From positions 1 to 59,528 of the IMG/VR virus record IMGVR_UViG_3300003885_000003: a DNA stretch of 59,528 nucleotides, one strand, 5' to 3'. The position numbers were made by a program, and so were the translations under genes. The stretch is from a virus (taxonomy: Duplodnaviria; Caudoviricetes). The notes below the pieces were generated by a model. The model worked only from the letters and a program-made list of their open reading frames with translations. It made no database searches and was not told the DNA's origin. Below are positions 1 to 49,897 of the stretch, piece after piece (the first letter of the stretch is position 1; each line of letters begins with the position of its first letter).

Positions 1-91
1 ATATGGAAGCACATGGGTGGGGGGATCATGTATACTATAGTTAGATTTTGAGACATTAACCAATAGGAGCAAGTAAAATGAATGAACCAAT
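1..91. repeat. Terminal direct repeat / assembly overlap, copy 1
   Basis: Positions 1-91 are identical to 59438-59528, indicating a circular or circularly permuted complete genome. Confidence 0.95.
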
Positions 92-344
92 CGCAACAAA
101 AACAAACGAACCGCAGGATACCACTCATTACCTAATCAACGCAGACGATCTATCTGAAAAAAGCCATCAGAAAAAGACATTGAGTATTTTTTTAAGGAAC
201 GACAATACCAAAATGTATCTGGGAGGAACCACTTACCAGTACAGCATCTGGGCAGTTCGCACTGTAAATGGTATTGAGATTTGGCATATACCATTCGATT
301 TTTCGGGCCGTTGGGTAAATGCAAAAAAGCGGAGTTGGAATTAA
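78..344 (+). CDS. Hypothetical protein (cassette 1)
   Basis: SD AGGAG at 65-69, TATACT box at 31-36, terminator downstream. Confidence 0.7.
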   Translation: MNEPIATKTNEPQDTTHYLINADDLSEKSHQKKTLSIFLRNDNTKMYLGGTTYQYSIWAVRTVNGIEIWHIPFDFSGRWVNAKKRSWN

Positions 345-360
345 AACGAGATTGTTTTCT

Positions 361-396
361 AAATCCCCGGCTGACCCCCTCAGCCGGGGATTTTTG
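361..396 (+). terminator. Intrinsic terminator of the CCCCGGCTGA/TCAGCCGGGG family
   Basis: aaatccccggctga-ccccc-tcagccggggattttt hairpin with U tract; homologous hairpins at 3301 and 41736. Confidence 0.85.
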
Positions 397-399
397 CGT

Positions 400-966
400 T
401 TACCCTACCACGTTAACATCGACTGACTTACTGTTTTGGCCTGGTACATACGTATACCCCGGCAAGCCGCTAACGGCCGCATACTGCCACAGCTTGTAGC
501 TCGTCCAGGGACGGGGAATCAGCGGCGCAGCAATATCCCAATTCGCCACCCACAACGGATGAAGGTCAGCAAACGCAGGATCGTACCATTTTATTTCGCC
601 TTCCCACGTACCGACATTCGTATAGATGCCTATGTTTTCTCGTGTCAGATAAAAATATTGATCAACGAAATCGCGAACCATCGGCCAGGTGGGGATGCCA
701 AGCTCAGACGTTTCCACATCTAGCCAGTCACCAAGCCGCCCTGGGGTGCGAGTGTCTACGAAGTTCTTGGCCTGAGCCGCATGATTAACGTCGGGGTAGA
801 GGAAATGGTAGCTGCCATGTGAGGTATATTCTTGCACTTGTGGCAGCCACTGGCTGTAGGTTGTATCATTTGCCAAGCCGATTGTTGCTCGCAAAACGAA
901 CCCGCGCACTTTGCCGGCCGTTGTCATTTCTTTGAAGTCAATTGTGTCAGCGATGTATTTGCTCAT
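400..966 (-). CDS. GH25 muramidase (endolysin), C-terminal part lacking the first beta-strand
   Basis: IDF...RAT.G, GSYHF, WLDVE (D-x-E), GIYT, LWVANW, LWQY and VDVN motifs; the N-terminal D-x-S-x-WQ motif is absent here but ends ORF 3338..4738; ATG at 966 follows TGGTATACT. Confidence 0.85.
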   Translation of the reverse strand: MSKYIADTIDFKEMTTAGKVRGFVLRATIGLANDTTYSQWLPQVQEYTSHGSYHFLYPDVNHAAQAKNFVDTRTPGRLGDWLDVETSELGIPTWPMVRDFVDQYFYLTRENIGIYTNVGTWEGEIKWYDPAFADLHPLWVANWDIAAPLIPRPWTSYKLWQYAAVSGLPGYTYVPGQNSKSVDVNVVG

Positions 967-1003
967 GAGAGTAGTATACCAGATTTCCAACTTAACATAA
1001 AAG

Positions 1004-1069
1004 TGTATCCTACTTTACAGTAAAGGTGTAAAGTAGTTTATAGAGATGGGGGATAGGATCGTTTATACT
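1004..1069 (+). promoter_or_regulatory. Tandem TGTA-N8-TACA boxes plus TATACT -10 (cassette 2 promoter)
   Basis: tgtatcctactttaca 1004-1019, tgtaaagtagtttata 1027-1042, TATACT 1064-1069; same layout at 34796 and 42604. Confidence 0.75.
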
Positions 1070-1106
1070 GTAGTTAGTTAGCAATTAGGTTAACTGAATC
1101 GGAGAA

Positions 1107-1328
1107 ATGGAAATGACAAAAGTAACATTAGAAGAAAGCGGCTACGAAATCGAAATCACAAAAGAAATGATAAATGAAATGGCGCAATATGGTGATACAC
1201 CAAGCGATTGGGGTACAGAGGTAGAAAATTGCGTATGGGTGAGCGTAGATTACGCAAAAGGCGACCCACACTGGGACATCCCGGAGGGGTATCCAGAATA
1301 TCTTCCACTCTGGGAAGAACGTATTTAA
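1107..1328 (+). CDS. Small acidic hypothetical protein
   Basis: GGAG SD; first gene after the cassette promoter. Confidence 0.7.
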   Translation: MEMTKVTLEESGYEIEITKEMINEMAQYGDTPSDWGTEVENCVWVSVDYAKGDPHWDIPEGYPEYLPLWEERI

Positions 1329-1371
1329 TTTATTCTCTCCCTTTTGAAGATTTATTTGAAATTGTGTACCT

Positions 1372-2049
1372 ATGAGTAAATTTGCAAAGGTATGGAATTC
1401 GTCCGCGTCACTAGACGAATTCCTAGAAAAGTATCCCAAAGAAATCAAGCGCAGCAGCGCATATTCAATAGCATCCCGACTAAGAAAACAGGGAGAAGAA
1501 TTAAAATACTTCAATCCTAGATACAGAGAACGGGAGCATGAAAAGAAAGATGCATTCATATATCTCTGGAATTCGTGTGCATCACTAGATGAATTCCTGG
1601 AAAAGTACCCAGGAAATATTAGGAATGACAGCGCACGCTCAAGAGCCTCTTTGCTCAGGAGAGAGGGGCACGAGTTACAATATTGGCGCGATGCGGACAA
1701 TCTACCAATTGCAAAGCTGCGCGATTGGTACACGGCAGCCGAAGCAAGAGAGATGTTTGGCTGGACATCGCGAGCGATTGTTAGCCAAACGGCGAGCCGC
1801 GAAAAGTGGACAAGCGGCAAGATCGGAGGATCGAAATTATATTGGCGTATAGACGTTGATGATTATTGGTTTGCCCGCCAGCGCCGAGAGTTGGCAAAAC
1901 GGGTAGACTGGCTAAATCCAGGTAGCACCCTAATCAGACATGATGATTGGGACATGGATTGCCCAAAGTGTGGGGCATTCGCCATCGGACACTACGGAAA
2001 TAATTGGGTTTGCGTGCGAGGGCACGCAGAAAATAAAGATAATGAATAA
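1372..2049 (+). CDS. Multi-domain DNA-binding protein (duplicated HTH-like repeat, excisionase-like HTH, Zn ribbon)
   Basis: Two copies of WNSxASLDEFLEKYP...AS.LR..G.EL; WYTAAEAREMFG HTH; CPKC...C..GH. Confidence 0.65.
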   Translation: MSKFAKVWNSSASLDEFLEKYPKEIKRSSAYSIASRLRKQGEELKYFNPRYREREHEKKDAFIYLWNSCASLDEFLEKYPGNIRNDSARSRASLLRREGHELQYWRDADNLPIAKLRDWYTAAEAREMFGWTSRAIVSQTASREKWTSGKIGGSKLYWRIDVDDYWFARQRRELAKRVDWLNPGSTLIRHDDWDMDCPKCGAFAIGHYGNNWVCVRGHAENKDNE

Positions 2050-2061
2050 TGGAGAAAGATT

Positions 2062-2262
2062 ATGAATGATAAGATTTTACCATCTTTGCCCATATTTCCC
2101 CGCAATCATCAGGAAGTGCAATTTGCACTCCTTCATCCCCACGCGCAACTTACAGCGTATGCTGTTCCAGCATACGATAATTGGGACGGAGGTATACAGG
2201 ATATGCAGATGTGTGCCTATAGTTTTCAGTTGGGTGCATGGAGCGAATGGGAACCGGTATAA
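2062..2262 (+). CDS. Hypothetical protein
   Basis: GGAG SD; in operon. Confidence 0.6.
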   Translation: MNDKILPSLPIFPRNHQEVQFALLHPHAQLTAYAVPAYDNWDGGIQDMQMCAYSFQLGAWSEWEPV

Positions 2263-2274
2263 GCGGGAAAAGGG

Positions 2275-2680
2275 CGCTGCCAAATTAGCAGCCAAGCCGG
2301 GGGCATTGTACCCGGCAAAGGAAATAAAATGTATTTTTCATGGAGATTTTCAGGGGTATTGTTAGAAAAAAGCGGCCGATTTGTCTATACGCAAGTTGCA
2401 GAGACACCGCCAATAGGCACATTGTGCGAGTTCGTTGATGGGGGACTAGCAATGGCCCCCATCAAGGGGACGCCGTCACAGTACGATTGCGACATGGGGC
2501 GAAACGGACTGCGAGGCCGCGCACACGGAACGCAAATGAAGAGCGGGGGGGCATTTAAGTTTATGGGGGAGAGAAAGGGTGAATTTTGGTTCCGCGATGA
2601 GGAAGGCAGAGTTCCGAATTACTGGCTCAAAGATACGCTGCCAAATTAGCAGCCAAGCCGGGGGCATTGTACCCGGCAAA
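2275..2680 (+). repeat. 45-bp perfect direct repeat (2275-2319 and 2636-2680) flanking one gene
   Basis: cgctgccaaattagcagccaagccgggggcattgtacccggcaaa occurs twice. Confidence 0.9.
2329..2649 (+). CDS. Hypothetical protein
   Basis: AAGGA SD; bounded by the 45-bp repeats. Confidence 0.55.
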   Translation: MYFSWRFSGVLLEKSGRFVYTQVAETPPIGTLCEFVDGGLAMAPIKGTPSQYDCDMGRNGLRGRAHGTQMKSGGAFKFMGERKGEFWFRDEEGRVPNYWLKDTLPN

Positions 2681-2691
2681 ATGATATTGAC

Positions 2692-3075
2692 ATGACTAAT
2701 TACTACAGTTGGAAAGTTGACGAGGACACAGTTATTGAGGATTTCGATTGGGCAATAGAAGCTGCCGAGGGTATCGCAAAATCGCTGGCGGGAGCGCAAA
2801 ATTCGCCAGAAGGCGGCCATGACAAGGAACGATGGCTGAACATGGCAAAAGACATATATGATGATCTCTATGACAGCCTAAGCTGGCGGGCAGACTTCAC
2901 AGCTTCAGATGTGTTCCCTGTGATTTGCGAAGCATTCGCAGAGACGTGCAGAGCGTTGGGCATAACCCCTATACCAGATTTCGCTAAGTTAAATCTGAAA
3001 ACAGAGTACATCCCGACTTACGAACCGGGAATGTCATTTGCACAGATAGCGAGAGGAGAGGGTCGTGATTTTTAA
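2692..3075 (+). CDS. Hypothetical protein
   Basis: 127-aa ORF in operon. Confidence 0.7.
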   Translation: MTNYYSWKVDEDTVIEDFDWAIEAAEGIAKSLAGAQNSPEGGHDKERWLNMAKDIYDDLYDSLSWRADFTASDVFPVICEAFAETCRALGITPIPDFAKLNLKTEYIPTYEPGMSFAQIARGEGRDF

Positions 3076-3107
3076 CAATAAAATAAAATACATTAGGGGG
3101 TGTTAAA

Positions 3108-3278
3108 ATGATTGTTTTTCAGGTGTATTTAATTGGTGTCGCTCTGTTTTTTGTCATTGCATACCGCATGAAACTAAGTGACGAAAAACCGCTGCGTAGT
3201 GCATTGTTTTTTGCAATACTATGGCCGGTGATGGCCCCGGCATGGGGGTTTTTAATGGTAGTGGAGTGGGCAACGTGA
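3108..3278 (+). CDS. Small membrane protein (56 aa, not in ORF track)
   Basis: MIVFQVYLIGVALFFVIAYRM...ALFFAILWPVMAPAWGFLMVVEWAT; G-rich SD upstream; terminator follows. Confidence 0.6.
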   Translation: MIVFQVYLIGVALFFVIAYRMKLSDEKPLRSALFFAILWPVMAPAWGFLMVVEWAT

Positions 3279-3300
3279 TACCAGCATAGTGCAGTTTAAT

Positions 3301-3334
3301 GACCCCGGCTGACACACTCAGCCGGGGCTTTTTT
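3301..3334 (+). terminator. Intrinsic terminator ending cassette 2
   Basis: ccccggctga-cacac-tcagccgggg followed by cttttt. Confidence 0.85.
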
Positions 3335-3337
3335 GCG

Positions 3338-4738
3338 TCATACTTTCCGCGCTTGCCAGTATGACAAATCAACCACTTTATCACCCGCCTGTAACCCGCC
3401 ATCCGGCTCCGTAAACCACTGCACATCAGACCAAATTGGCCTAACAGTATAATAAACACGACGCGGCAAATAACCGTTGATTGTTTCTGCTGCCTGTGAA
3501 GCGAATTGAATGCCGTCTACAGTAGACCAGAATTCTGACTGGACTGGCGTAAATCCATCAGCAAATATAGCGGCTTGTAATGCCGCATTCGGATTGAGGC
3601 TGATTGTTTGTAATTCTACAGATTCATTCCATAGTGCCTGCTGCCAGCTTTCGTCCGGGGGTGGCGGGTCGGTCGGGTAGGGGTAGTTGCGTGATAAGTC
3701 AGCAACTGCGTTCATGTGAGGCTGCGCTAACTCAAAATACTTCCACAATGTGCCAGGCCCACCACTGGTAAAAATTACACTACCTTTTACACGGCCGTCC
3801 CGATATGCGGCCGTCGTTGTTGCGTTGTCTAGCCAGTATTTTAGCACAGCTAGATACCGGTCGATGTCACCATTAAGCGCCTCAGGATGCCGCCAGCCGC
3901 CTTGGGGGTCGAGCCATCCCGACCAGTCAGGCGAAGCGTCGCGCACTACACCTGATTCACCAAATATCCAATCAGGACGCACTCCTGCTGCGGCAAACGA
4001 TTTATCCATTGTTTCCCAACGGCCAGAGTAAAAAGACCACTCGCCAGGCATAACAACATCAGGTTCACTTCGGTCTCGCACGTTGTCTCGTGTAGCCGCC
4101 TGCACATCTAATTCTAGTTGCATTACATATAATTCGTCTGGCGTTTCATGAAAACTAGCACGGGGCGCATTATGATGATAATTATGTGGACTATATTTAG
4201 TACTAGGCGGCATTAAGCCAGTATGATTCCGAACTGGTATATACGGATGATAGCCTAGCAGTGCATCATACATTACGGCCGCCTGAGCTACATCAAGCGG
4301 AATGTCGTTGCCGACGGCCGTCTCTGCGAGAATCATACGAATGTGGGCCAGTTCAGGTTCCTTTCGGTACTCCTCGTACCATACTTTTGCCATTGCTGTA
4401 TGGAGTGAGACCCACCGGATTCGCTCGCTGGCATCCTGGCTGTTGGAAAAAGTCTCGTTGTATTCCTGGATGTAATCGACGTACTGAGCCTCACGCCGGA
4501 ACGTGCCATCGACGAAATTGTTCAGCCAGTCGCGTGCGGGCTGTTCAAAGTCAGCACCAAACGGCGGCAGTGGTTGGTCACCTACCCACCGATACCAGGT
4601 TTTGATCCCTGGGTTCGCCTGCTTTGCTTCACGGCATCGCTCAACACCGAATAGAAACTTCACCACTGCACCCGCGGGCAGCTTCGCCACCGCTTTCGGC
4701 CAATCTTGCGGGCTGTTCTGGATATGAAAACCAATCAT
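3338..4738 (-). CDS. Modular endolysin N-part: glycoside hydrolase-like TIM barrel, Pro linker, accessory domain and first strand of GH25
   Basis: YNE, GYHPY and FGESG motifs typical of clan GH-A; PYPTDPPPP linker; ends VVDLSYWQARKV. Confidence 0.7.
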   Translation of the reverse strand: MIGFHIQNSPQDWPKAVAKLPAGAVVKFLFGVERCREAKQANPGIKTWYRWVGDQPLPPFGADFEQPARDWLNNFVDGTFRREAQYVDYIQEYNETFSNSQDASERIRWVSLHTAMAKVWYEEYRKEPELAHIRMILAETAVGNDIPLDVAQAAVMYDALLGYHPYIPVRNHTGLMPPSTKYSPHNYHHNAPRASFHETPDELYVMQLELDVQAATRDNVRDRSEPDVVMPGEWSFYSGRWETMDKSFAAAGVRPDWIFGESGVVRDASPDWSGWLDPQGGWRHPEALNGDIDRYLAVLKYWLDNATTTAAYRDGRVKGSVIFTSGGPGTLWKYFELAQPHMNAVADLSRNYPYPTDPPPPDESWQQALWNESVELQTISLNPNAALQAAIFADGFTPVQSEFWSTVDGIQFASQAAETINGYLPRRVYYTVRPIWSDVQWFTEPDGGLQAGDKVVDLSYWQARKV

Positions 4739-4785
4739 TATTTTAATCCTCTCTAATATGTAAACCAACAGATAGCTAGAATTAT

Positions 4786-5121
4786 TTAACAGCTAAAACG
4801 GTTTGCTAAGTGAACTTCGTTTACCCACTTTTCCAATTCACATGTCCACTCACCATCATGAAATCTGATGATGTCGCCGCTTACTTCTTTGTATACATTG
4901 CATGCTACACCGTATTTGTTACGTAATGTAACATTTAACGATTGGTAATAATGCTGTACACAATCAACCATCTTTTTCTCATCCATCCAGAATACAGCCA
5001 TTTCACCACGTTCGTTAGAGCTGATATGTTGTTCACATGCTCCAACTTTCAGTACTTCCCGCGCATTTCGCGGTACATGTTTTTTTCGTGCAATCTGCCT
5101 GCACTTTTTTTGCTCAGACAT
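4786..5121 (-). CDS. Hypothetical protein
   Basis: GGAGG SD; in late operon. Confidence 0.7.
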   Translation of the reverse strand: MSEQKKCRQIARKKHVPRNAREVLKVGACEQHISSNERGEMAVFWMDEKKMVDCVQHYYQSLNVTLRNKYGVACNVYKEVSGDIIRFHDGEWTCELEKWVNEVHLANRFSC

Positions 5122-5130
5122 AATAACCTC

Positions 5131-6306
5131 CTACCGGTTATTGCTATCTGTTGGTTTCAGTTTTGTAAAAATCTTGCCCATTTCAGTTATCGGCCCTGAG
5201 CCGTTTCCCTCACTCAAATCGGCAAATCGTTCGTCTCCAGCGTACATTGCCCACCGGTTTACGGCCGTAAATCCGTCTGTCCCGTCGTAAATTTGCTGTA
5301 AGCAGTCGGCACTTGCTGCGTCGTTTTTGCCGCAGGGCGATTTTGAATTGCGAGTGAAGCCAATCTCTGTTAGCCATAGTTGCTGGTCACGGCAGTACGG
5401 CCGTTCATTGCATAGGTCCAAAAACTGTTCATACTCATCTACGTAGCGGCTCACTCGCTCACGATCAAGGTTGCCCACGCCAATTTTGCCATTCAGATCG
5501 AACGCTGGGTAAACGTGGAATCCAATGCCGACCACTTCAGGAGCAAGTATACCATATGCAGCAACGAACTGGTCGAGCCATTTGGAGCCTGTAAATGAAT
5601 TGTGCGCGTTGCTGTTGCCTAGAATGACACGATAATCAATGCCTGCGTATTTCTCTGCTATTTGCTCACGATACCATACGGCGGCATCCTCTGGCGCAGT
5701 GCCGCATTGCCCAAAACTGCGCCAGACCTCACATTCATTGAATACTAGCACATAGTTACCTGGCGCACACAGCGCCTCCTCAAACTGTGCCCTGGTTGGT
5801 GTTGTTGGATGTTTGTCCGGACGAAGCTGAATGATATGTTCGTAGTCTGGCAACTCGCAAGCGTAGTTGTCCCCGTTTGCACCCCAAACGTACTGCCACG
5901 TGCTGCCCAAATCGTTACGTCTGAAATCCACCTGAGAACGGCCGCCAGGCACAAAGCCGAACGCCGCCCCCCTCCGTGCTGTGCTTTGTGGCCCTCTGGT
6001 CGGTGTGGGCGCCGGCGTGTTCGTAGGTCGCAGCGTAGGCGTAGGCTGTGGCGTGTTTGTGGCAACGGCCGTAGGCAGTGGGGTCGATGTAACATCCGGG
6101 GGACAATCGGCAAACGTAACGACCTGTACGCCGTCCTCAGAGTATGTGATCGTAGTGTCTGATTTACATTCAGCGCTGACCGGATTGTAGGCCGTTACGC
6201 TGTTGATATGATTGGTGGATGGCTGTGGCTCATCATTTTCTGAGCGACAACCAACCACGACAAATAACAGCACAGCAAAAAAGACAATTGCATACCTACG
6301 CTTCAT
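5131..6306 (-). CDS. Lipoprotein with Thr/Pro linker and GH-A (GH128-like) glycoside hydrolase domain
   Basis: Signal peptide ending VVVGC; PT-rich linker; VFNE acid/base and LWLTEIG nucleophile motifs; GFHVYP. Confidence 0.75.
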   Translation of the reverse strand: MKRRYAIVFFAVLLFVVVGCRSENDEPQPSTNHINSVTAYNPVSAECKSDTTITYSEDGVQVVTFADCPPDVTSTPLPTAVATNTPQPTPTLRPTNTPAPTPTRGPQSTARRGAAFGFVPGGRSQVDFRRNDLGSTWQYVWGANGDNYACELPDYEHIIQLRPDKHPTTPTRAQFEEALCAPGNYVLVFNECEVWRSFGQCGTAPEDAAVWYREQIAEKYAGIDYRVILGNSNAHNSFTGSKWLDQFVAAYGILAPEVVGIGFHVYPAFDLNGKIGVGNLDRERVSRYVDEYEQFLDLCNERPYCRDQQLWLTEIGFTRNSKSPCGKNDAASADCLQQIYDGTDGFTAVNRWAMYAGDERFADLSEGNGSGPITEMGKIFTKLKPTDSNNR

Positions 6307-6496
6307 CAGCAGGCTTTGCAATTAGCGTGAAGGCAAAAGGTATCATTCCTTCATCATTGAAGCTGCCAAGCTCCAAGACGCGGACAAATGAACCTTGAAA
6401 CATGGTTTTCTCTGCCCATCCCTCAATTGCCTTCGCCACATCTTCTCTGGTTAGTTCTAAGTTTGCTTGCGCTCGTTTTAGACTTTCTGCCATCAT
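6296..6496 (-). CDS. Hypothetical protein
   Basis: Overlaps neighbours at both ends; GGAG SD. Confidence 0.6.
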   Translation of the reverse strand: MMAESLKRAQANLELTREDVAKAIEGWAEKTMFQGSFVRVLELGSFNDEGMIPFAFTLIAKPADEA

Positions 6497-6795
6497 TCAA
6501 TCTCCTTTGAAACTATTACGGCCGCTTTGCCATCTGCCGTTCGTGGTGCTGCCATCGGGGTCACTCGCTGCCGTGCAAACCACGCCGAAATAATAGGAAT
6601 AGCCATTGCCACCAGCGGCACGATTATCGTCACAAAATTTTCAATACTACTGATTTGCTCTTGGTTCAGGTTCAGCCAGCCGAGCGCAACAGCCATTATT
6701 ATACCGGTAATTATACCGGCAATGACAGCCGTCGTCATCACTGGCTCACGTGTAAGTTTTAATTTCATTTTTTCTGTTCGTGTTAGTTCTTCCAT
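6493..6795 (-). CDS. Holin-like two-TM membrane protein
   Basis: EPV...two hydrophobic helices...WFARQRVTP, a pattern seen in actinophage-type holins; lies upstream of the lysins. Confidence 0.65.
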   Translation of the reverse strand: MEELTRTEKMKLKLTREPVMTTAVIAGIITGIIMAVALGWLNLNQEQISSIENFVTIIVPLVAMAIPIISAWFARQRVTPMAAPRTADGKAAVIVSKEIE

Positions 6796-8845: not shown

Positions 8846-9927
8846 TAAGTACCTCCAAATATCTTTACAGGCGGAGGAAACGCACCCATCGAACGCTTGT
8901 ACCCCTGCACATCTGGCCGGCCATTCAGTCCAACCGATACGCTATTGCCGCTCAATACCCTGATCTCCTCAGTGCTACTAAACGGCGTATGCTGTAAGTC
9001 GCCACTCTCCATCGTAAAGTCATACAGAATCGTGTGCCATGCCCCATCCATGTAAATTTCAAATGTAGGTGGGGAACTGTTCACGACACGGATTGCACGT
9101 TCCACATTGCGGTCATTGCTGCCAATCCGACAGTTAGCGATGTCTTTATTGCTGATGTAAGTCAGGCCGTATCCGGCCGTTGAGCTATCTTTTTCATAGC
9201 CCATGTCTACCCCAGACCTTATGCCGTAATTTATCGGCGATTCGTACCATGCAGAATCAGCAAGGATGAATACGTAATAGCGTTTTGTATCACTTGAAAA
9301 TCCGATGGCATCGGCCGTCGGTGTGGTCGCTAACAGATTGTCACGAGTATCAATCGTGACTTCTAGTCCACCAAGTGTTTCAATTTTAGCATACAGCACA
9401 TTCTTCGTTGCACCATCTAAATCACCATTCCAACCCGCACCATACGCTGTATCAGAAATCATTGCCGCTTGATACTGCGTTACGGCCGTCTCTGGTACGC
9501 TACTGTCCGCAATATTGTCGGTATGTAAAGCCAGATTAAACGCATCACCTGCGACTGGTTGCGGGTCATAGACTGCCTTTGTCATGTAGCCAGCCAGTGT
9601 ATTGGCGCTGAAAGTGTCTGTATCTGCGGCAGCAGCAACGAACGTTTCCCAATCGGTGGCGCTGCCCTGATCCACGCCACTATAAAATGTCTGATTATCA
9701 GGCAGTCGGAAATGATACCTCGCTGCCTGTGTAGCAGCGTCAGGCACTTGCAATGTCAGGCTGAACGTGCCATCGCTATCGCTCACGGCCGTACTGATTT
9801 GATGCTGGTTTATAAATGAGCCACCGGAGAATAAAAACGCGGTCAGCAACGTGGCGCGAACGTTCGTGCCATCTGGGAAATCACTATCCGGGTCTTGCTG
9901 CACTCCTGTGATTATTATCGTTGTCAT
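8842..9927 (-). CDS. Tail fibre / tail-associated protein
   Basis: MTKAVYDP and DTAYGAGWNGD...TKN motifs; N-terminal ~100 aa paralogous to the upstream gene. Confidence 0.65.
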   Translation of the reverse strand: MTTIIITGVQQDPDSDFPDGTNVRATLLTAFLFSGGSFINQHQISTAVSDSDGTFSLTLQVPDAATQAARYHFRLPDNQTFYSGVDQGSATDWETFVAAAADTDTFSANTLAGYMTKAVYDPQPVAGDAFNLALHTDNIADSSVPETAVTQYQAAMISDTAYGAGWNGDLDGATKNVLYAKIETLGGLEVTIDTRDNLLATTPTADAIGFSSDTKRYYVFILADSAWYESPINYGIRSGVDMGYEKDSSTAGYGLTYISNKDIANCRIGSNDRNVERAIRVVNSSPPTFEIYMDGAWHTILYDFTMESGDLQHTPFSSTEEIRVLSGNSVSVGLNGRPDVQGYKRSMGAFPPPVKIFGGTY

Positions 9928-10232
9928 GCTACTGCCGCTGCGACGAACGTCTCCCAGACTGTCGAACTGGCCTGATTTACGTCGTCATAAAAAGATTGGT
10001 TGTCCGGCAACCGGAAATGATACCGTGCCGATACACTAGCATCGTCTGGTACTTGCAGCGTAAGGCTAAATGTGCCGTCACCATTATCGACGGCCGTACT
10101 GATTTGATGCTGGTTTATTAATGACCCACCTGAAAACATGAACGCAGTTTGTAACGTAGCACGAATCTTTGTACTGTCTGGGAACGTGCTGTCTGGGTCT
10201 TGCTGCACTCCTGTAATTGTGATTGTTGTCAT
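9924..10232 (-). CDS. Stand-alone paralog of the N-terminal attachment domain of the adjacent fibre
   Basis: MTTITITGVQQDPDS...WETFVAAA closely matches the N-terminus of 8842..9927. Confidence 0.7.
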   Translation of the reverse strand: MTTITITGVQQDPDSTFPDSTKIRATLQTAFMFSGGSLINQHQISTAVDNGDGTFSLTLQVPDDASVSARYHFRLPDNQSFYDDVNQASSTVWETFVAAAVA

Positions 10233-10648
10233 TCGTTCGGCCTCCAATCCGGCCGTGAATCGTGTTTATTGATTTGATCTATTAATTTGTCAATGCCGGT
10301 CAGCAGACGGTCTACACGTTGGCGAAGTTTTGCATTGACGACCTCCAACTCACCGGCTCTTTCCACATAGACTTTTGCGTCATGTTCTAAGCTGCTCACC
10401 CTGCCACGCAGTTTTGAGTTGACCGTTTTAACACTAGAAATCTGTACTTGTAATTCATGGTTACGCTGTTCCAATACATCCAGCCTCTTTTGCATATCGT
10501 CCAATAGGGCCATCGCAGTCTCCGTTAGTTTTGCAGCCATATCTACACGCCGTTTATCACGGCCGATAAGCCAAGCTGCGGCCGTTGCTAATGCTGTAAT
10601 CACAAATATAGCTATTGGCACGATGCTTAAAATAGTGTCTAAATCCAA
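10229..10648 (-). CDS. Membrane-anchored coiled-coil protein (possible lysis accessory)
   Basis: N-terminal TM followed by heptad repeats. Confidence 0.65.
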   Translation of the reverse strand: MDLDTILSIVPIAIFVITALATAAAWLIGRDKRRVDMAAKLTETAMALLDDMQKRLDVLEQRNHELQVQISSVKTVNSKLRGRVSSLEHDAKVYVERAGELEVVNAKLRQRVDRLLTGIDKLIDQINKHDSRPDWRPNE

Positions 10649-10694
10649 TACTCACCCGTTACTTTGTTTAATTGTCATCTTACTGTCTGCCATC

Positions 10695-11468
10695 TTACGG
10701 AGTAGCGGTGCTAGTTGGCACGGCCGTATCCGTCGCTGTAGGTATCAATGTCGGCGTAGTCGTTAATGTAGGCGTGTTACTCGGTTCAGGCGTGGCCGTA
10801 ACAACCACAGTAATCACTACTGGCGTATTTGTTGGTGTGTTAGTCGGCGTTGCTGTAGGCAGTGGTGTGGACGTGACCGTAGGCGTAGCTGTCCAGGCTG
10901 CCGCAGTCGCTGTCTGAATTACGGCCGTTAACGTCGCTGCTATGTCCGGTGTACTCGTCGGCATCGGTGTGCTGGTCATCGTCGGCGTTGGTGTCCATGT
11001 TGCACAGTTACACGACGTTGCCGTGGGCAGCGGCGTGTTTGTATTTGTCGCTGTGGGCAATGGGGTCGATGTCCAGGCTGCTGCTGTTGCCGTTTGTGCA
11101 ATGGCCGTTATCGTTGCCAGATAGTCCGGTGTGTTCGTCGGGGTGGGTGTAGCTGTACTTGTCGGCGTTGCACTTGGAGTAATACTCGGTGTCACTGTCC
11201 ACGTCGGATAGGGCGTATACGTCGGCAACGGCGTATAGGTCGGCAAGGGGGTCTGCGTCGGAACGGCCGTTGCCGTTATTGTTGGTGGCGTTATCGGTGT
11301 GCTAGTCGGTGGAAGAGGTGGGCCAGCTATATCGCTGGTAATTATTGGCAGGTAAGCACGGCCGTCCTGCTGGGCAGCTAGTCGCGATACGGCAAACGCA
11401 GCAGCAAGCCACAACAATGCACCGACAACTACTGCAATCAATAATGCCCGCAATCCGCCGTTAGTCAT
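10695..11468 (-). CDS. Secreted or membrane Thr/Pro-rich mucin-like protein
   Basis: Signal or TM segment, YLPII motif, long TPT repeats. Confidence 0.7.
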   Translation of the reverse strand: MTNGGLRALLIAVVVGALLWLAAAFAVSRLAAQQDGRAYLPIITSDIAGPPLPPTSTPITPPTITATAVPTQTPLPTYTPLPTYTPYPTWTVTPSITPSATPTSTATPTPTNTPDYLATITAIAQTATAAAWTSTPLPTATNTNTPLPTATSCNCATWTPTPTMTSTPMPTSTPDIAATLTAVIQTATAAAWTATPTVTSTPLPTATPTNTPTNTPVVITVVVTATPEPSNTPTLTTTPTLIPTATDTAVPTSTATP

Positions 11469-11730
11469 TTCCTAAATCAACCTCGCTGTTTACTTTTGCT
11501 CGCGCTGCCAGTCGTGCAATTTCAGCATCGCGCTCTTCCTCACTGAATAACACCTGAGTGCGTACACGAGATCGCACTCCACGCACAAAATAAGTTGCTT
11601 TTTCTAAATTCGTCGCTGTATTTGGATCAACATCATCCGGTAGATATGCCTCTGCGATACGCACCATTAGCGCCTGACTAACAGTACCCCCTGTGAGTGC
11701 CTCAATAATTGCAATCGCTCTTTGTATCAT
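11461..11730 (-). CDS. Hypothetical protein (possible fibre chaperone)
   Basis: Coupled to the preceding fibre gene. Confidence 0.6.
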   Translation of the reverse strand: MIQRAIAIIEALTGGTVSQALMVRIAEAYLPDDVDPNTATNLEKATYFVRGVRSRVRTQVLFSEEERDAEIARLAARAKVNSEVDLGND

Positions 11731-32840: not shown

Positions 32841-33539
32841 TCAATAGAGCTTTAACGGATTGATTTCACATGTCTGTAAAAACAAGTTACCCGTCCCTCC
32901 AAATTCTTTATGTCCACCACGCAAATCGCACTTTGATTCTATTTTACCAATAGTAGGTACAATAACCAGGTCTATACCCTTCACCTGGATATTTTCATCA
33001 CAGACTTCATCGATCACAAACATGCTGTCAGGAAACGGAAATGTTCTGTTTTTTATAGAATCAATAATGACATTCTGTGCAGCCATTCCTTTATTGCTAG
33101 TAGTCATGCTATTTCTAATAGAATGCGCTATTAAAATATCTTGCGGTATACGTGCCCAAACACACCCATTCAATTTGTCAGGAGGAACCAAATACCCACC
33201 AGAAGTCCGTACCTTTTGTGTACCCACAAACTGATATACAGCAACTTTTCTATACTTACCTGTTCTTATCGCTATTACAGCATTACTCGGTGAAAACGAA
33301 TATATGTGTTTTGCCACAAAGCAAACATGAGCAATCAAATCGCTTTTATGCTTTTGAATACCATAGTCAATCAATCCAATACACGGGTCTGCTTGCCCAC
33401 GTAGCCACAATGATATGCACTCAGTATCCCCACAAGTTATCCCATAGGCTGATTTTCGTTTACGGCAAATTGGGCATAGGCTCGTTTTTTCAACATAATG
33501 CACAGCCTCAGCTACCCCGTAATGATCTCTATATCTCAT
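32841..33539 (-). CDS. Zn-finger plus PD-(D/E)xK-like nuclease
   Basis: CPIC...C...C; QVKGIDLV...KIESKCD...TGNLFLQ; coupled to the MTase. Confidence 0.6.
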   Translation of the reverse strand: MRYRDHYGVAEAVHYVEKTSLCPICRKRKSAYGITCGDTECISLWLRGQADPCIGLIDYGIQKHKSDLIAHVCFVAKHIYSFSPSNAVIAIRTGKYRKVAVYQFVGTQKVRTSGGYLVPPDKLNGCVWARIPQDILIAHSIRNSMTTSNKGMAAQNVIIDSIKNRTFPFPDSMFVIDEVCDENIQVKGIDLVIVPTIGKIESKCDLRGGHKEFGGTGNLFLQTCEINPLKLY

Positions 33540-34557
33540 TGCCCCAAATATCCCATCCCTCCGCAGCTTTTCTTGCAAACAATTCTATGCGTTTTCCATA
33601 TGTATAAAGATCATCAATAATTTCTCTAAATTCTTTTGGTTTTTCAGAATGAGTTCTTGATTTTTGAATACTGATAACGCTATCGTAAAGCTTGGAATTG
33701 TCCGGCAAACAACTTCCACGAGTACAGACCAGTAAAAATTCATGCCGAACACTGTTATAATGCCCAAAGTTATGACCGACTTTATCCCACACAAATGAGG
33801 TCTTGTACTTAAATCCCCACGCCTCAATAATCGGAATACATTCAACTAATAGAGGCGATGTGACCCATAAAAACAAAACGGCATCGTTTTCCACTATTGC
33901 CTTTACTGGCAACTCGCACAATTCTTTTATACTCATATCAGAATAATGCCGATTGACACGGCCGTAATTATCGTTTTCAGTTATCACCCCACTATCCCCA
34001 TAACGCCAGGGCGGGTCGGCATAAACGATACGATACTTATCATCAGGTAATTGTGGCGCGTTTTTTCGTTCTGCTACAAGGGCCTCTCGCTTATATTGAT
34101 GTGCAAGTCTACCAAAAACAGAATTTGTTATTGCTGTACTTTCTGTTTCTATTTCGTCTAAGGCATCTACAAAAACATCTTGTGGTATTAGTGCCAACTC
34201 CTGCCACCGCCGCGCCTGGCGTTCATGTATGCCATTGTCAGTTATGGTCTGAGTGTATTCGCTTGGGCTAGAATCGGACAGGCTGTCCGATTCTAGTTTT
34301 GTATATCTATTGCCATGTCCCCGCTCCAACTCGCGCAGCATCTCCCCTATCGCACGCTGCGTCAGTAGCTCACGGCGCTTAATACGATTGTACTCAGATA
34401 CAGCAACATTAGCAGCTTTAGCTATTTCACCCAACGCCTTTAGCTGCTTCTGTATAATGGTAACATCCCCCATTGTTTGCGCTTCTACAAGACGTAAATC
34501 AATCTCATCTAATTGACGGTCTATTGCACTTATTGTTTGTATTTGATTGTTGGTCAT
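33529..34557 (-). CDS. MT-A70 family N6-adenine DNA methyltransferase
   Basis: YADPPW, VLFLWVT, WGFKYKT, HEFLLV..RG, HSEKP, RIELFAR, GWDIWGNE. Confidence 0.92.
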   Translation of the reverse strand: MTNNQIQTISAIDRQLDEIDLRLVEAQTMGDVTIIQKQLKALGEIAKAANVAVSEYNRIKRRELLTQRAIGEMLRELERGHGNRYTKLESDSLSDSSPSEYTQTITDNGIHERQARRWQELALIPQDVFVDALDEIETESTAITNSVFGRLAHQYKREALVAERKNAPQLPDDKYRIVYADPPWRYGDSGVITENDNYGRVNRHYSDMSIKELCELPVKAIVENDAVLFLWVTSPLLVECIPIIEAWGFKYKTSFVWDKVGHNFGHYNSVRHEFLLVCTRGSCLPDNSKLYDSVISIQKSRTHSEKPKEFREIIDDLYTYGKRIELFARKAAEGWDIWGNEI

Positions 34558-34751: not shown

Positions 34752-34795
34752 CATAGATTATAGCATACTTTCGCTATTTTCACTTAATATAAAAG

Positions 34796-34861
34796 TGTAT
34801 AGCAGTTAACACAAAAAGTGTAGCGTCGTTGATAAAGATTGGACTATAAATCGTTTATACT
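34796..34861 (+). promoter_or_regulatory. Tandem TGTA-N8-TACA-like boxes plus TATACT (cassette 4 promoter)
   Basis: tgtatagcagttaaca 34796-34811, tgtagcgtcgttgata 34819-34834, TATACT 34856-34861. Confidence 0.7.
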
Positions 34862-35048
34862 ATAGTTAGATAGGAACCCGGCTTAAGAGTATGGCAACTG
34901 GAACGAGAAACCCGGTAAAAATAAATGAAATCGTTGGAGATGCAAACAAGCAATTAAGTGGAATTGCAAGCAGATAAAGAGAGCAACGAACAAAAAGAAG
35001 TTGCCCCAACTGAACTTCCACTTAATTGAAAGGATATTTAATTTAGCA

Positions 35049-41639: not shown

Positions 41640-41735
41640 TTTTTATGATGCTTTTTATACTGTAAGGTTGCCATTATGTTTATCTAGTTCGACATATAAC
41701 CATTATACCACGTGTAGTCAAATAGCGGAGAACGC

Positions 41736-41770
41736 AAAAAAGCCCCGGCTGATGGGGTCAGCCGGGGCTA
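41736..41770 (-). terminator. Terminator ending cassette 3
   Basis: agccccggctga-ccccа-like loop-tcagccggggct followed by T run on the minus strand; same family as 361 and 3301. Confidence 0.8.
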
Positions 41771-41930
41771 GTGAATAAGTTATTCATACGTAATAAGCAA
41801 CTCTATCCATAGCAGAAAGAGCTCGTCGCTTTCACCCCCATCAAAATTCTCTCGATAATATTCACGCAAGACACTGACAAAATTTCTTTCAGTGTCTTCT
41901 GTTATTTCTGGTATTTCTGGCATCTTCATT

Positions 41931-42143
41931 TTAATATAACTCTGCAACTTTCGCCTTAAATTCATCGCGACCAATGTTTTTGCCATGCCGATAAGCCGCC
42001 ATAATTAGCTCGTCAATAAAATCAGGGTTTGCCGTTTCAAACACCTGCGCCTGAGCTTCCATAACACTCGTAGCATCTTCAAGTATCGCTAAAACTTCGT
42101 TGGTATTTTTCACCATTAAATCTAAACGTTCTTTGTTTGTCAT
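41931..42143 (-). CDS. Hypothetical protein (cassette 3)
   Basis: AAGGA SD. Confidence 0.6.
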   Translation of the reverse strand: MTNKERLDLMVKNTNEVLAILEDATSVMEAQAQVFETANPDFIDELIMAAYRHGKNIGRDEFKAKVAELY

Positions 42144-42155
42144 TTCTATTTCCTT

Positions 42156-42416
42156 TTAATGCACGTAATCTGTCTTGCCGTTATAAGCTACAATGTCACC
42201 AGTTTCAAAATCTACAACTTCATCACCGATTACAAAGTTTTCTTTGGGATAAGTTGCTCTGAATGCACGAAGCGTTCCGCGAGTTTGAATGCCTTCTTCA
42301 AACGTTCCACCCTTGATTACCTGATAAATGTTGTGCCCTGCGAGGGTTTGCGTGTATCCGTTTCTTTTGATTGTTATCCCTATTATTACGTTCATCTTAG
42401 CCTCCATAGTTGGCAT
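42156..42416 (-). CDS. Hypothetical protein (cassette 3)
   Basis: GGAGG SD before MNVII. Confidence 0.6.
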   Translation of the reverse strand: MPTMEAKMNVIIGITIKRNGYTQTLAGHNIYQVIKGGTFEEGIQTRGTLRAFRATYPKENFVIGDEVVDFETGDIVAYNGKTDYVH

Positions 42417-42597
42417 ACGTTACATCGAACATCGAGGTTTGCTGTAACTCGCATAATTTATCGAAGGATACAACTTTGTTTTCTGTATGTTTCCCGCAAT
42501 TGATCATCTGAATTACATAAAACTGACTGCTTTGGTCAGCTGCTTTTTTATCACACTCTGTAATTGCTTGTTTTCGTGTCAGTTTTGTTTTGCTCAT
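42397..42597 (-). CDS. Hypothetical protein, probably leaderless
   Basis: ATG 6 nt after TATACT. Confidence 0.55.
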   Translation of the reverse strand: MSKTKLTRKQAITECDKKAADQSSQFYVIQMINCGKHTENKVVSFDKLCELQQTSMFDVTYANYGG

Positions 42598-42603
42598 ATC
42601 TAT

Positions 42604-42669
42604 AGTATAAATGATCCCATGACCAACTTCTATAAAGTAGGACACACCTTTACTGTAAAATAGGATACA
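42604..42669 (-). promoter_or_regulatory. Tandem TGTA-N8-TACA boxes plus TATACT (cassette 3 promoter)
   Basis: Boxes at 42654-42669 and 42631-42646, TATACT at 42604-42609; reverse complement nearly identical to 991-1029. Confidence 0.75.
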
Positions 42670-42690
42670 CTTTTATGTGAAGTGACTAGC

Positions 42691-46332: not shown

Positions 46333-47181
46333 TCATATCTCCATTTTAGTCTGTCGCAGATGCACGTCTAAATCAGGCCGTGCATTATGCGACCTGTCAC
46401 ATATCCATAGTATCTCTGTGCGGCTTTCGCCCCGCAATTGCTTACTGGCTGACATTACAGTCTCAATCTCTATACGTTCCTGTGCTGACTGAGGCTCAAC
46501 ATCCTGCGCGTAGTTGCTCAGGATGTAGCTGCCTGTAGCATCGTCTAACGTCGTACAAAGAGCCGCCCAATCTGCGGCCGTGTAGCCGCTATAATGACCC
46601 TGTTGTGAGCCAGGGTAAGGCGGATCCAAGTAATGCAACGTTTGCGGCGAATCCCACCTCTCTATGAACTTCAGCGCGTCGATGTTGTCCACAAATACAC
46701 CGCGTAGCCGGTCTAGCTGTGCCGGCAGTCTGTGCAGCTTACGCTGCCATGTACTGGCGTGATTACGACTAACTTGGCCAAAACTCCATCCTGCATTAGC
46801 TTTATTTGCAAATGATTGATTGAGGTTCACAAACACGGCCCATGCAATCTCCATATCCGAATAGTCACCAGGCGCTTTCCATATTTCACAAGCCAGCCGG
46901 TGTTCTTCCTGAGCGTACAATGTAAGGTCGAGTCGTCGTTCAAGTTCGGCCGGCTGGTCACGGGCCACACGGTAAAACGTAGTGATAACGCCGTTGTTGT
47001 CGTTAATGGCCTCGCGGTAGTAATGTGACGACCGGCGCACAGGGCGCGGCTTAGCAAACAGCAACGCTGCGCCACCTGCGAAGGGTTCGCTGTATACCGT
47101 GTGTGGTATACGATTAACCTGTTTCAGCAGGTGGCGCATTATGCTCTGTTTGCCGCCGTAATAACTGAGGAGTGGTTTCAT
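46333..47181 (-). CDS. Dam-like (D12 class) N6-adenine DNA methyltransferase
   Basis: YYGGK, YSEPFAGGAA, EAIND, YLDPPY, ILSNY, EILW. Confidence 0.92.
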   Translation of the reverse strand: MKPLLSYYGGKQSIMRHLLKQVNRIPHTVYSEPFAGGAALLFAKPRPVRRSSHYYREAINDNNGVITTFYRVARDQPAELERRLDLTLYAQEEHRLACEIWKAPGDYSDMEIAWAVFVNLNQSFANKANAGWSFGQVSRNHASTWQRKLHRLPAQLDRLRGVFVDNIDALKFIERWDSPQTLHYLDPPYPGSQQGHYSGYTAADWAALCTTLDDATGSYILSNYAQDVEPQSAQERIEIETVMSASKQLRGESRTEILWICDRSHNARPDLDVHLRQTKMEI

Positions 47182-47567
47182 AGCTCAGTTTCTGTGATCT
47201 CGCCGTCAGTCACGTCAATTACGCAGATATAATCCCCACCTTCCCACACAAGAAGCGCTTTAAGATGACCCGTGCTTTTCATGAGAGCCGGCAGTATAAC
47301 TTTCTGGTATGCTGTTCCGCTGCCCTCACCGGACAACGAGATTTTATAGACATACAACATTTTGGTTTCTATGTTTCCAGTTTCTTCTATTACACTCTCT
47401 CCAAATGATGTAGTAAAAATCATTTTCGTTTCATTATGATTTAATGCTACTTGATACTGCATACAAAACCCTTTGCGTTGCATATCGTCACTAAATTGCA
47501 ACGCAACAAGCGGCATTTTCAGCCTGTGCAGTGTTTTCGTGCGCCAGTTTGTTATGTTGTAGCTCAT
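47178..47567 (-). CDS. Hypothetical protein
   Basis: GEGSG...LVWEGGD...V.DG motif. Confidence 0.7.
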   Translation of the reverse strand: MSYNITNWRTKTLHRLKMPLVALQFSDDMQRKGFCMQYQVALNHNETKMIFTTSFGESVIEETGNIETKMLYVYKISLSGEGSGTAYQKVILPALMKSTGHLKALLVWEGGDYICVIDVTDGEITETEL

Positions 47568-47965
47568 AATAATGTTTTCGCTTTGAGGTGGCTTACCAGG
47601 TCGGCTATCCGGGTAACCATGTCGTTGATCAGGTCGTCTACCCTGTTGGCTATCAGGTCGGCAACCAGGTCGTCTACCCTGTTGGCTATCAGGTCGTCTA
47701 CCCTGTTGGCTATCAGGTCGGCAACCAGGTCGGCAGCCAGGTCGGATAGGTAGCCAACAGGGTCGTCTACCCGTTTTGCAGCCAAGTCGTATACCAGGTC
47801 GGCAACCAGGTTGTCTACCAGGTCAGATAGGTAGCAAACCTGGTCGTCTACCCGGTTGGCAGCCAAGTTGTCTACTAGGTCGTTTACACCAAATTGCAAC
47901 GCATCAAGTAAAGGTTCCAGTACGTGCAGTATTTTCGTGCGCCAGCGGGTTATGTTGTAGCTCAT
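47564..47965 (-). CDS. Tetrapeptide-repeat protein with N-terminus duplicated from the neighbour
   Basis: MSYNITRWRTK; VDDL/VADL/IANR repeats. Confidence 0.5.
   Translation of the reverse strand: MSYNITRWRTKILHVLEPLLDALQFGVNDLVDNLAANRVDDQVCYLSDLVDNLVADLVYDLAAKRVDDPVGYLSDLAADLVADLIANRVDDLIANRVDDLVADLIANRVDDLINDMVTRIADLVSHLKAKTLL
47595..47885. repeat. Degenerate 12-bp tandem repeat array
   Basis: caggtcgtctac, cctgttggctat and caggtcggcaac units. Confidence 0.85.
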
Positions 47966-49382: not shown

Positions 49383-49772
49383 TTATCGCAATTCACCGGC
49401 ATGTTCTGCACAACGTAGCATTGTTGTTTTGCTGTGCTTCCGGCAAATAACTAAATGAAAACGAGCTCGTTTACGGCAGCGTGTTAACACGCCGTTAATG
49501 CGGTCTTCTCGGTCGCAAACACGACGACCTGTGTATGGTTCGTCAGTGCTTACAGTGTGTCCTGTGCGCGGTTCGTCCAGGGGATCAGCGGAATCGGCTT
49601 CTTCCAGTGCGCTATCGGTTTGTGTGTATCGCTGCATAATGTGATCCATTATGCAGGTGTAGGCTGTTACCTTTTCGCTTGGAACCGTGTCCAAGCTAAT
49701 CCAAGTGTCAACCTCTATTAGTAAATCTGCATACGCTTTTTTGTAGTCCATTGTTGCCTCCGTTTCATTCAT
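49383..49772 (-). CDS. Hypothetical protein, first of the leftward operon
   Basis: ATG 6 nt after TGGTATACT; Cys/His-rich C-terminus. Confidence 0.55.
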   Translation of the reverse strand: MNETEATMDYKKAYADLLIEVDTWISLDTVPSEKVTAYTCIMDHIMQRYTQTDSALEEADSADPLDEPRTGHTVSTDEPYTGRRVCDREDRINGVLTRCRKRARFHLVICRKHSKTTMLRCAEHAGELR

Positions 49773-49778
49773 ATTAGA

Positions 49779-49869
49779 AGTATACCATTGATATTTTCTG
49801 TATGTGTTAAGCGGTTTACAGTGTAGGTGTAAAGTACTTAACACTTGTAAATGAATATTGATGTACACT
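49779..49869. promoter_or_regulatory. Divergent early control region with two TGTA-N8-TACA-like boxes
   Basis: Boxes 49805-49820 and 49828-49843; TATACT leftward (49779-49784) and TACACT rightward (49864-49869), each 20 nt from a box. Confidence 0.7.
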
Positions 49870-49897
49870 AAAAGCATATTGATTTTGGAGGTACGAT

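Follow-up and report, generated by a model that had tools for sequence, protein, structure and literature searches.

Phage genomes carry promoter-terminator cassettes known as morons or PeSL, and PlyC is reportedly a multi-chain endolysin composed of PlyCA and PlyCB. Functional split phage enzymes were previously known for nucleotide metabolism and replication. In the available text of PMC2988022, T4-type genes-in-pieces include nrdA of Aeh1 split by mobE, gene 39/60 of T4 split by mobA, and 43A/43B of phages 25 and 44RR, and the gap in gene 43 was possibly occupied after the split. Among lysins, the lysin gene of the lysK and Sb-1 lineage carries a group I intron or an HNH gene within it (available text of PMC13729910), Gordonia phages have split lysA genes (available text of PMC9671378), and CTP1L has a secondary translation product, as stated in the title of PDB entry 5a6s. 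The literature that we found on split or interrupted endolysins covers intron or HNH interruption, frameshift, and the Gordonia splits at domain boundaries, and phrase searches, paper supplements aside, turned up no lysin whose catalytic domain is reported to be cut inside its barrel. Here we describe a phage lysin gene that is divided within its GH25 domain. The gene is in the IMG/VR virus record IMGVR_UViG_3300003885_000003, which was analysed whole (59,528 bp with a 91-nt terminal overlap) and is called the window below.

The two products probably reassemble. With a probability of roughly 55%, we read the locus as a conserved lysin in pieces, reassembled by strand complementation into a functional two-chain GH25 enzyme.

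One GH25 domain in two open reading frames

One GH25 domain is encoded by two separate minus-strand open reading frames (ORFs), 4738..3338 and 966..400, with a gene cassette between them in a gap of 2,371 bp (967-3337). Here 'piece 1' refers to the upstream, 466-residue product and 'piece 2' to the downstream, 188-residue product. The initial annotation had reported where the first ORF ends and the second starts, all of which was correct on re-reading both ORFs. It had also stated that piece 2 has every other GH25 motif, and a profile search agrees, as piece 2 matches Pfam Glyco_hydro_25 (PF01183) with the remaining motifs present (E 1.2e-14), its 55.4 bits exceeding the cut-off of 27. Of the 180 profile positions, the match spans 8-179, and the seven at the start are the only ones that piece 2 lacks. 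When the genome was scanned, piece 2 was its sole GH25 match (55.1 bits).

The strand with the D-x-S-x-[WY]-Q motif is absent in piece 2, which starts with MSKYIADTIDFKEM (MSKYIADTIDF...), and is carried by the end of piece 1 (..GDKVVDLSYWQARKV or ..VVDLSYWQARKV, i.e., ..DLSYWQARKV; stop TGA at 3340-3338). There the motif reads D457-L-S-Y-W-Q, with D457 encoded at 3368-3370. By this motif, piece 1 ends in the first GH25 strand, which bears the conserved Asp.

Piece 1 consists of an N-terminal domain (N-domain), a middle domain and the tail. It matches no Pfam family above its cut-off, and its homologues, 78 proteins at E <= 0.001 with 8,000 candidates scored, form a family without a Pfam name. 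The broader motif D-x-S-x-[WYHF]-[QN] is present in 12 of the 78, and 10 of these 12 are full GH25 fusions. It lies within the last 10 residues only in the window's piece 1 and one other homologue, P0011. In P0014, on the other hand, a middle domain as in piece 1 is followed by ..GIDVSHHQG.. and a full GH25 domain.

What follows the N-domain varies in this family. According to precomputed Pfam labels, it is M23 in 20 homologues, Amidase_2 in 11, GH25 in 10, PF02057 alone in 1, and nothing labelled in 36, the window's own piece 1 included. Many of the unlabelled homologues stop right after the middle domain (P0002, P0004, P0012, and P0016). The N-domain family is thus modular, and piece 1 without GH25 would still pass as a normal member. 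In locus L002, a 52.8-kb IMG/VR phage, the gene of a 388-aa N-domain lysin has an M23 peptidase gene (137 aa) of its own directly downstream (9998-11634), which is a domain-boundary split of the N-domain/M23 fusions found elsewhere.

Relatives divided at the same point

When piece 2 was searched with HMMER against 1.84 billion cluster representatives, 1,602 matches were obtained at E <= 0.001, and only three at E <= 1e-30, namely the query, P0080, and P0081. P0080 is a protein of 184 aa, 57% identical to piece 2, and its start, MAFVCDTINW, falls at the same point as MSKYIADTIDF. Its counterpart on the other side of the break is P0011 (416 aa, 51% identical to piece 1), which ends with ..GVDISQWQARQV (..VDISQWQARQV) at the same point as piece 1. 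The middle domain of P0011 is of another type, common to P0006 and P0009 and unlike that of piece 1.

P0011 and P0080 are each found on one Logan contig of 38,328 bp, and by these equal figures the two would share a single contig. Thus, a second phage lineage, known through its proteins alone, appears to keep the same division. Further stand-alone fragments with the same start are P0229 (MTYVADTIDW..) and P0230 (MAFVCDTIDW..), both on contigs of ~1.68 kb. Further N-terminal pieces with a GH25-strand tail were found neither among the 78 homologues, besides piece 1 and P0011, nor in the five sequences read of six other matches (P0235 was left out).

Uninterrupted alleles had been suggested as a check, and the relatives P0081, P0082, P0083, P0084, and P0089 provide them. 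All five have a loop of 8-13 residues between W-Q and D-T-I-D, an extra feature of the GH25 subfamily nearest to piece 2. P0081, for example, is an uninterrupted protein of 660 aa with an N-domain of piece 1's family. In P0083, the loop region reads ..WQSRYDSKIGGYVADTINF, and its Y-V-A-D-T-I-N-F aligns with Y-I-A-D-T-I-D-F of the window. The window's A-R-K-V after W-Q and S-K-Y-I-A before D-T-I-D align inside the loop of P0083 and P0081. Because these residues map to the loop, the two ORFs jointly hold the full domain with no coding loss. The initial annotation had restored the frame by joining the pieces at a shared GC dinucleotide; the join is unneeded, and it would drop the residues homologous to the loop of P0083 and P0081.

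Incidentally, P0131, a 200-aa GH25 relative of another lineage (~34% identical), starts with MSDDQDAIDWKK.. just after the first strand, as judged by eye. Division at this point may have occurred repeatedly.

Relatives of the split lysin were scarce in other collections. GenBank phages gave no match to DNA 1-6500, to piece 1 or to piece 2, and no relative of the split lysin was found in GTDB genomes. In IMG/VR, neither piece 1 as a single protein nor P0080 found a match; the piece 1 alignment found five distant loci (L002-L006), none of which has the split, and the fragment alignment found one 28% match (L007). The sole locus from the JGI metagenomes, L008, was rejected as an unrelated, spurious match, as judged by its ORFs.

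Conservation of the fragments was examined in an alignment of piece 2 with 64 relatives (n = 65), which has 26 columns with at least 80% consensus. All four known fragments (piece 2, P0080, P0229, and P0230) retain 23 of the 23 consensus columns that lie within the fragment, and they mutually differ at 43-48% of positions. The other three consensus columns correspond to the start Met and to two strand-1 residues, D (in 56 of the 65) and S (in 57). D83 and E85 are invariant (65/65). If the split predates the divergence of the fragments, purifying selection would have acted on a gene piece that is unable to close the barrel alone.

Structural models of the two chains

Piece 2 alone was modelled as a GH25 barrel with seven strands at a predicted local distance difference test (pLDDT) value of 94.6. 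The model matches Cellosyl (1JFX) with Z of 22.5 and root-mean-square deviation of 1.7 over 178 aligned residues (chain residues 10-203), and 4krt_B with Z of 22.0, and Cpl-1 is aligned from residue 11. The N-terminal catalytic Asp is at position 9 of Cellosyl and position 10 of Cpl-1, and by this numbering piece 2 would begin just after it. The predicted activity of the joined domain is that of a GH25-family muramidase.

The model of piece 1 has pLDDT of 87.7, and the tail (449-466) is below 50 when modelled alone. The top Foldseek matches of the N-domain are PslG, GH39, GH26, GH5, and GH1 (E 3e-8 to 1e-4; template-modelling score ~0.4), and N94, E95, and E261 are invariant across a 70-sequence alignment of piece 1. 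Clan GH-A barrels are characterised by N-E on strand 4 and E on strand 7. By its model, the N-domain resembles a clan GH-A glycosidase.

For the complex, three runs were made in which residues 362-466 of piece 1 were the partner of piece 2, the latter supplied with its alignment. The complex model scored 0.88, and the best of three controls scored 0.00. In a calibration of this score, the mark was reached by 58 of 80 solved complexes and by 2 of 110 mismatched pairs. The three runs agreed with one another in 75% or more of their contacts. The modelled interface is formed by the tail (449-466) and residues 2-9, 18-26, and 182-188 of piece 2, so that the tail is flanked by the second and last strands, and D457 is next to Y53 and Q161. 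Thus, in the co-fold that the initial annotation had suggested, the tail takes the place of the missing strand, which is a matter of likeness, not binding: the two chains being halves of one known fold, the pass may reflect likeness to solved GH25 structures.

Start signal of piece 2

An extended -10 sequence had been noted 6 nt before the ATG of piece 2, and it is present there (TGGTATACT). The genome has nine sites of TGGTATAMT, all on the minus strand (981, 5554, 11802, 12707, 34672, 37445, 41710, 49787, and 53824), against 1.05 expected, and 0 of 100 shuffles reach nine. Of these, site 34672 precedes the gene that opens the long operon, site 41710 the small-terminase gene, and site 49787 a gene of the regulatory region. 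Four of the nine (981, 12707, 41710, and 49787) have an ATG after exactly 6 nt. TATAMT-N6-ATG occurs at five sites, again all on the minus strand, against 1.53 expected, and 2 of 100 shuffles reach five. Site 49787 has both the leftward start and the TTTACA-N7-TGTAAA inverted repeat, as the insert does. Piece 2 therefore likely starts as a leaderless mRNA from a two-way promoter module, and the recurring motif suggests that leaderless mRNAs are common in the phage and its host.

Cassette in the gap

The initial annotation had described the gap as a plus-strand operon with its own promoter and terminator, and six ORFs, a promoter-like site and a strong terminator are indeed present (Table 1). 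GC skew flips sign across the insert, as expected from opposite-strand genes. Above noise, the six ORFs have no family in Pfam (E <= 1), PHROGs (0.1) or NCBIfam (0.1). A recombinase or nuclease (GIY-YIG, HNH, LAGLIDADG, etc.) was found in none of the six, although remote homologues could escape. A search of 5.8 billion proteins gave no homologue of the 225-aa ORF, for which Atlas yields only leads of helix-turn-helix type, below 0.9. Of the six, the 56-aa ORF encodes a small membrane protein (phrog_24541).

Both ends of the cassette recur in the genome. Homologues of the promoter module lie at 42683-42596 (minus strand), 34782-34876, and 49745-49915, and the left end of the cassette (from 990) differs from 42683-42644 by 2 mismatches in 40 nt. 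The terminator at the other end, T1, could have been a duplicate of the lysin's own terminator; this idea was dropped, as T1 and T2 belong to a family of three copies. A second promoter-to-terminator cassette with the end elements of the insert, containing four small ORFs, lies on the minus strand at 42683-41733, just upstream of the terminase genes. The first ORF of this paralogous cassette starts with ATGAGCAAA 6 nt after its -10, and the same sequence opens piece 2 at the same spacing. The first codons of piece 2 may derive from the promoter module, so the left junction is uncertain by a few codons. A target-site duplication was rejected, as only the 4-nt ATGA is common to both junctions, and recombining ATGA retains the stop.

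Exact direct repeats of 45 nt (2275-2319 and 2636-2680) flank the ORF 2329-2649. Contig depth is 6 between these repeats versus ~11 on both sides, and 15.3 in the repeat itself, which suggests that about half of the population lacks the 361-bp unit through recombination between the repeats. The inverted repeat TTTACA-N7-TGTAAA occurs at 1014-1032, at 49815-49833, and at related sites, between divergent promoters, and is a candidate operator for a phage regulator. The cassette would be best described as a moron-like or PeSL-like unit built from the genome's own regulatory repeats.

Whether the cassette caused the split or came later into an existing gap is a matter of guess. We would favour the split first, because the cassette genes are unique and the 51-57% identity between the divided lineages implies age.

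Table 1 Features of the split lysin locus and related elements in the window
Feature	Coordinates	Strand	Details
Piece 1	3338..4738	minus	466 aa; ATG at 4738; Shine-Dalgarno GAGAGGA 8 nt upstream of ATG
Piece 1 layout	residues ~1-355, ~362-448, 449-466		clan GH-A-like TIM-barrel glycosidase; middle domain; linker and first GH25 strand
Inverted-repeat hairpin	3337-3344 / 3358-3365	minus	9 pairs, 13-nt loop; pairs S-Y codons with V-stop codons
Piece 2	400..966	minus	188 aa; GH25 strands 2-8 with D83-x-E85; first strand alone absent
Extended -10 TGGTATACT	981-973	minus	6 nt, then ATG 966-964; no Shine-Dalgarno
Two-way promoter module	990..1084	plus	inverted repeat TTTACA-N7-TGTAAA and rightward -10 TATACTGTAGTTAG (1064-1077)
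Promoter-like site TAGAGA-17-TATACT	1041-1069	plus	consensus match
Cassette ORF	1107-1328	plus	73 aa
Cassette ORF	1372-2049	plus	225 aa
Cassette ORF	2062-2262	plus	66 aa
Cassette ORF	2329-2649	plus	106 aa
Cassette ORF	2692-3075	plus	127 aa
Cassette ORF	3108-3278	plus	56 aa
Terminator T1	3303..3338	plus	stem 3303-3327, T6, GCGT; last base is the A of piece 1's TGA
Terminator T2	365..396	plus	between piece 2 (minus) and converging plus ORF 78-344
Terminator T3	41733-41770	other strand	third copy of T1/T2 element

Genome setting

The split lysin lies at the end of a block of minus-strand genes that runs from ~34,557 down to 3,338. The block contains large virion-sized ORFs, a holin-like membrane ORF (6843-6493), and a gene for a secreted glycosidase (6321-5131; PF11790), and we count in it the large terminase gene (41293-40007), assigned from its translation. 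The secreted glycosidase (minus strand; E 5.5e-15 to PF11790) has a lipoprotein-like signal and a Pro/Thr-rich linker, and its gene is two genes upstream of the lysin. Within the virion genes, 9624-10228 is a tandem duplication of ~300 nt with 73% identity.

Elsewhere in the genome, three DNA methyltransferase-like genes are found at 33529-34557, 46333-47181, and 51269-51985 (MT-A70, D12 N6-adenine, and C5-cytosine), which hints at heavy anti-restriction modification. An array of ~25 units with a 12-nt period (47595-47887) lies within the adjacent paralogous minus-strand ORFs 47178-47567 and 47564-47965, which also have a common 82-nt repeat with 80% identity.

Proposed two-chain lysin

If the two chains do form one enzyme, its history and working could be as follows. 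The ancestor would have been a single protein with a clan GH-A-like glycosidase, a middle domain, and a GH25 muramidase, as in P0081. The cut would have fallen in the subfamily-specific loop, right after the first strand, which bears the conserved Asp. Since then, the first strand would have been made as the C-terminal tail of the last gene in the long minus-strand virion/lysis operon, and the seven other strands, with D-x-E, as the 188-aa protein, translated from a leaderless mRNA under a separate extended -10 promoter. The terminator of the cassette abuts the stop of piece 1, and its two-way promoter would supply the start of piece 2. The disordered tail of piece 1 would then insert into piece 2 as the missing strand, closing the barrel, completing the active site, and tethering GH25 to the other glycosidase.

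Several points weigh against such a two-chain enzyme. First, its basis is limited to sequence, contigs, and models. Second, that P0011 and P0080 are located together is inferred from the equal 38,328-bp figures, and their lineage is known from proteins alone. Third, if a site-specific element had hit the loop twice and recently, the conservation of the fragments would be hardly informative on function after the split. Fourth, the GH25 domains in nearer relatives of the N-domain share only 24-28% identity with piece 2. Fifth, many homologues of piece 1 (P0002, P0004, P0012, and P0016) are complete without a second domain, and piece 1 would thus be independent of GH25. Sixth, the fold of the partner is uncertain in the complex model (pLDDT 41-46). 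Seventh, piece 2 lacks a Shine-Dalgarno sequence, and its leaderless translation is deduced from the motif alone.

A further-reaching version of the two-chain reading is more tentative, and we rate it clearly below even odds. The GH25 active site of this natural split barrel would form solely on contact of the two proteins, transcribed separately. It would serve as a two-input lysis gate, one input being the late operon and the other the operator-flanked leaderless promoter, and the permanent gap would be a landing pad on which promoter-terminator cassettes with new genes are swapped.

Alternative explanations

The cassette could have simply broken GH25, leaving piece 1 as a stand-alone glycosidase and piece 2 as a roleless remnant, undecayed or decaying slowly. 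This is unlikely, but it survives better than the other rivals. Stand-alone N-domain proteins that end just before the position of the tail are common among the 78 homologues, another glycosidase is encoded next door (5131-6321, PF11790), the missing Shine-Dalgarno sequence would suit a gene without a role, and the 225-aa cassette gene, unique to this phage, fits a recent arrival. However, the same break is seen in a lineage that is only 51-57% identical, and three fragment variants have the common start. All four fragments have kept open frames along with their 23 conserved columns, and the promoter-plus-ATG of piece 2 is of a type that is enriched in the genome.

A still less probable reading is that piece 2 acts by itself and that the tail of piece 1 is vestigial. 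Piece 2 would then be a GH25 enzyme that dispenses with the first strand and its Asp, or else a non-catalytic protein for wall binding or regulation. Some authors assign GH25 catalysis mainly to the D-x-E pair, which piece 2 keeps as D83-x-E85. Its single-chain model is confident, and P0131 also starts after strand 1 (by eye). On the other hand, a confident single-chain model is no proof that an open barrel is stable. The tail D-x-S-x-W-Q-A-R-x-V is kept in both piece 1 and P0011 despite their differing middle domains, and most of the 65 family members have D and S in strand 1, as counted above.

Rejoining of the pieces at the nucleic-acid level, whether an intron is spliced out or the cassette is excised or inverted late in infection, is very improbable. 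Lysin genes of the lysK type do have group I introns (available text of PMC13729910), and the hairpin at the stop of piece 1, which the initial annotation had pointed out and which is present as a stem, pairs the last codons of piece 1. By our own rough estimate, such a repeat near the junction would be found by chance a few times in 100. As the P1 helix of a group I intron, the hairpin was rejected, since its only U-G pair would place the conserved S-Y-W-Q inside the intron. Rfam (E <= 1) gave no intron RNA on either strand of 1-6000, although a core broken by large inserts could escape, and its only matches were two weak ones to small RNAs, over terminators. For an intein, Pfam lists no family in piece 1 or piece 2, and only four residues stand after W-Q in piece 1 and six before D-T-I-D in piece 2, all aligned to the host loop.

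Excision fares no better. No useful flanking repeat was found at the cassette ends, and the six ORFs contain no recombinase or nuclease family. Among public sequencing runs, none of RNA and only one of DNA, kept as contigs, was listed for the stretch; the DNA run may be the source sample, and no contig in it shows the empty junction. A contig that joins 1029 to 3303 was considered as the excision product and rejected, as it is the paralogous cassette 41733-42683 of the same genome. Moreover, the insert has an antisense promoter, six ORFs, and a terminator of its own, and there is nothing to remove, as the residues flanking the gap are homologous to the loop of intact relatives.

That the lysin is whole in the real genome and was divided by assembly is hardly credible: although this is a metagenome assembly and the 45-nt repeat inside the cassette breaks the contig graph, it does so there only, the check for misassembly placed both junctions well inside single contigs (62-2304 for the left and 2651-6000 for the right) at an even depth of ~11, and independent data sets hold proteins with the same ends. 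The little probability that is left goes to something else.

The initial annotation had offered three options. Fragment complementation is favoured by the shared break, the conserved columns, the start signal, and the complex model. DNA excision is disfavoured, as neither a recombinase, nor an empty-junction contig, nor a useful repeat was found, and a disabled domain fits the conservation poorly.

Comparison with known systems

If the two chains reassemble, the locus would provide a natural case of single-strand complementation in a glycosidase barrel. Two wall-degrading activities would be coupled without a covalent link, and the arrangement might work as a lysis timing device. The split site could be used in engineered lysins. 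In annotation, the 188-aa protein would pass as a lysozyme and the 466-aa protein as hypothetical, and their connection would be missed.

The T4-type genes-in-pieces, as far as the available text describes them, are alike in that the gene is contiguous in relatives and is cut in a critical region, each piece has its own stop or start, and reassembly of the products is anticipated. The parallel with Aeh1 mobE drawn by the initial annotation holds for this outcome and not for the agent, as a homing endonuclease, by which those genes are usually defined, was not found in the cassette ORFs, and the lysin gap is instead occupied by an antisense regulatory cassette. The present enzyme also differs in being a lysin, and in that one chain keeps only a single beta strand of the domain, reassembly being putative here.

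In PlyC and CTP1L, as would be the case here, a lytic enzyme comprises more than one polypeptide. Whole domains associate in those enzymes, whereas here one barrel and its active site would span the two chains. The Gordonia lysA genes (in the available text) and locus L002 are similar in that lysin activities fused in some phages are encoded by separate genes in others. There, however, the cut lies between domains and leaves complete enzymes, whereas the cut in the window lies within a domain. In the lysK and Sb-1 lineage, a lysin ORF is likewise annotated as two moieties; the available account involves restoration at the RNA level or a nuclease, whereas neither an intron nor a nuclease was found in the cassette of the window.

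The cassette itself compares well with morons and PeSL. It is a promoter-to-terminator unit with ORFan genes, its ends are repeats that recur in the genome, and deletion between repeats seems to occur in the population. Unlike morons and PeSL, it is located within a catalytic domain and not between genes, and its two-way promoter also starts the downstream piece. Repeated promoter and terminator modules can thus put a whole transcription unit inside a gene without destroying the gene.

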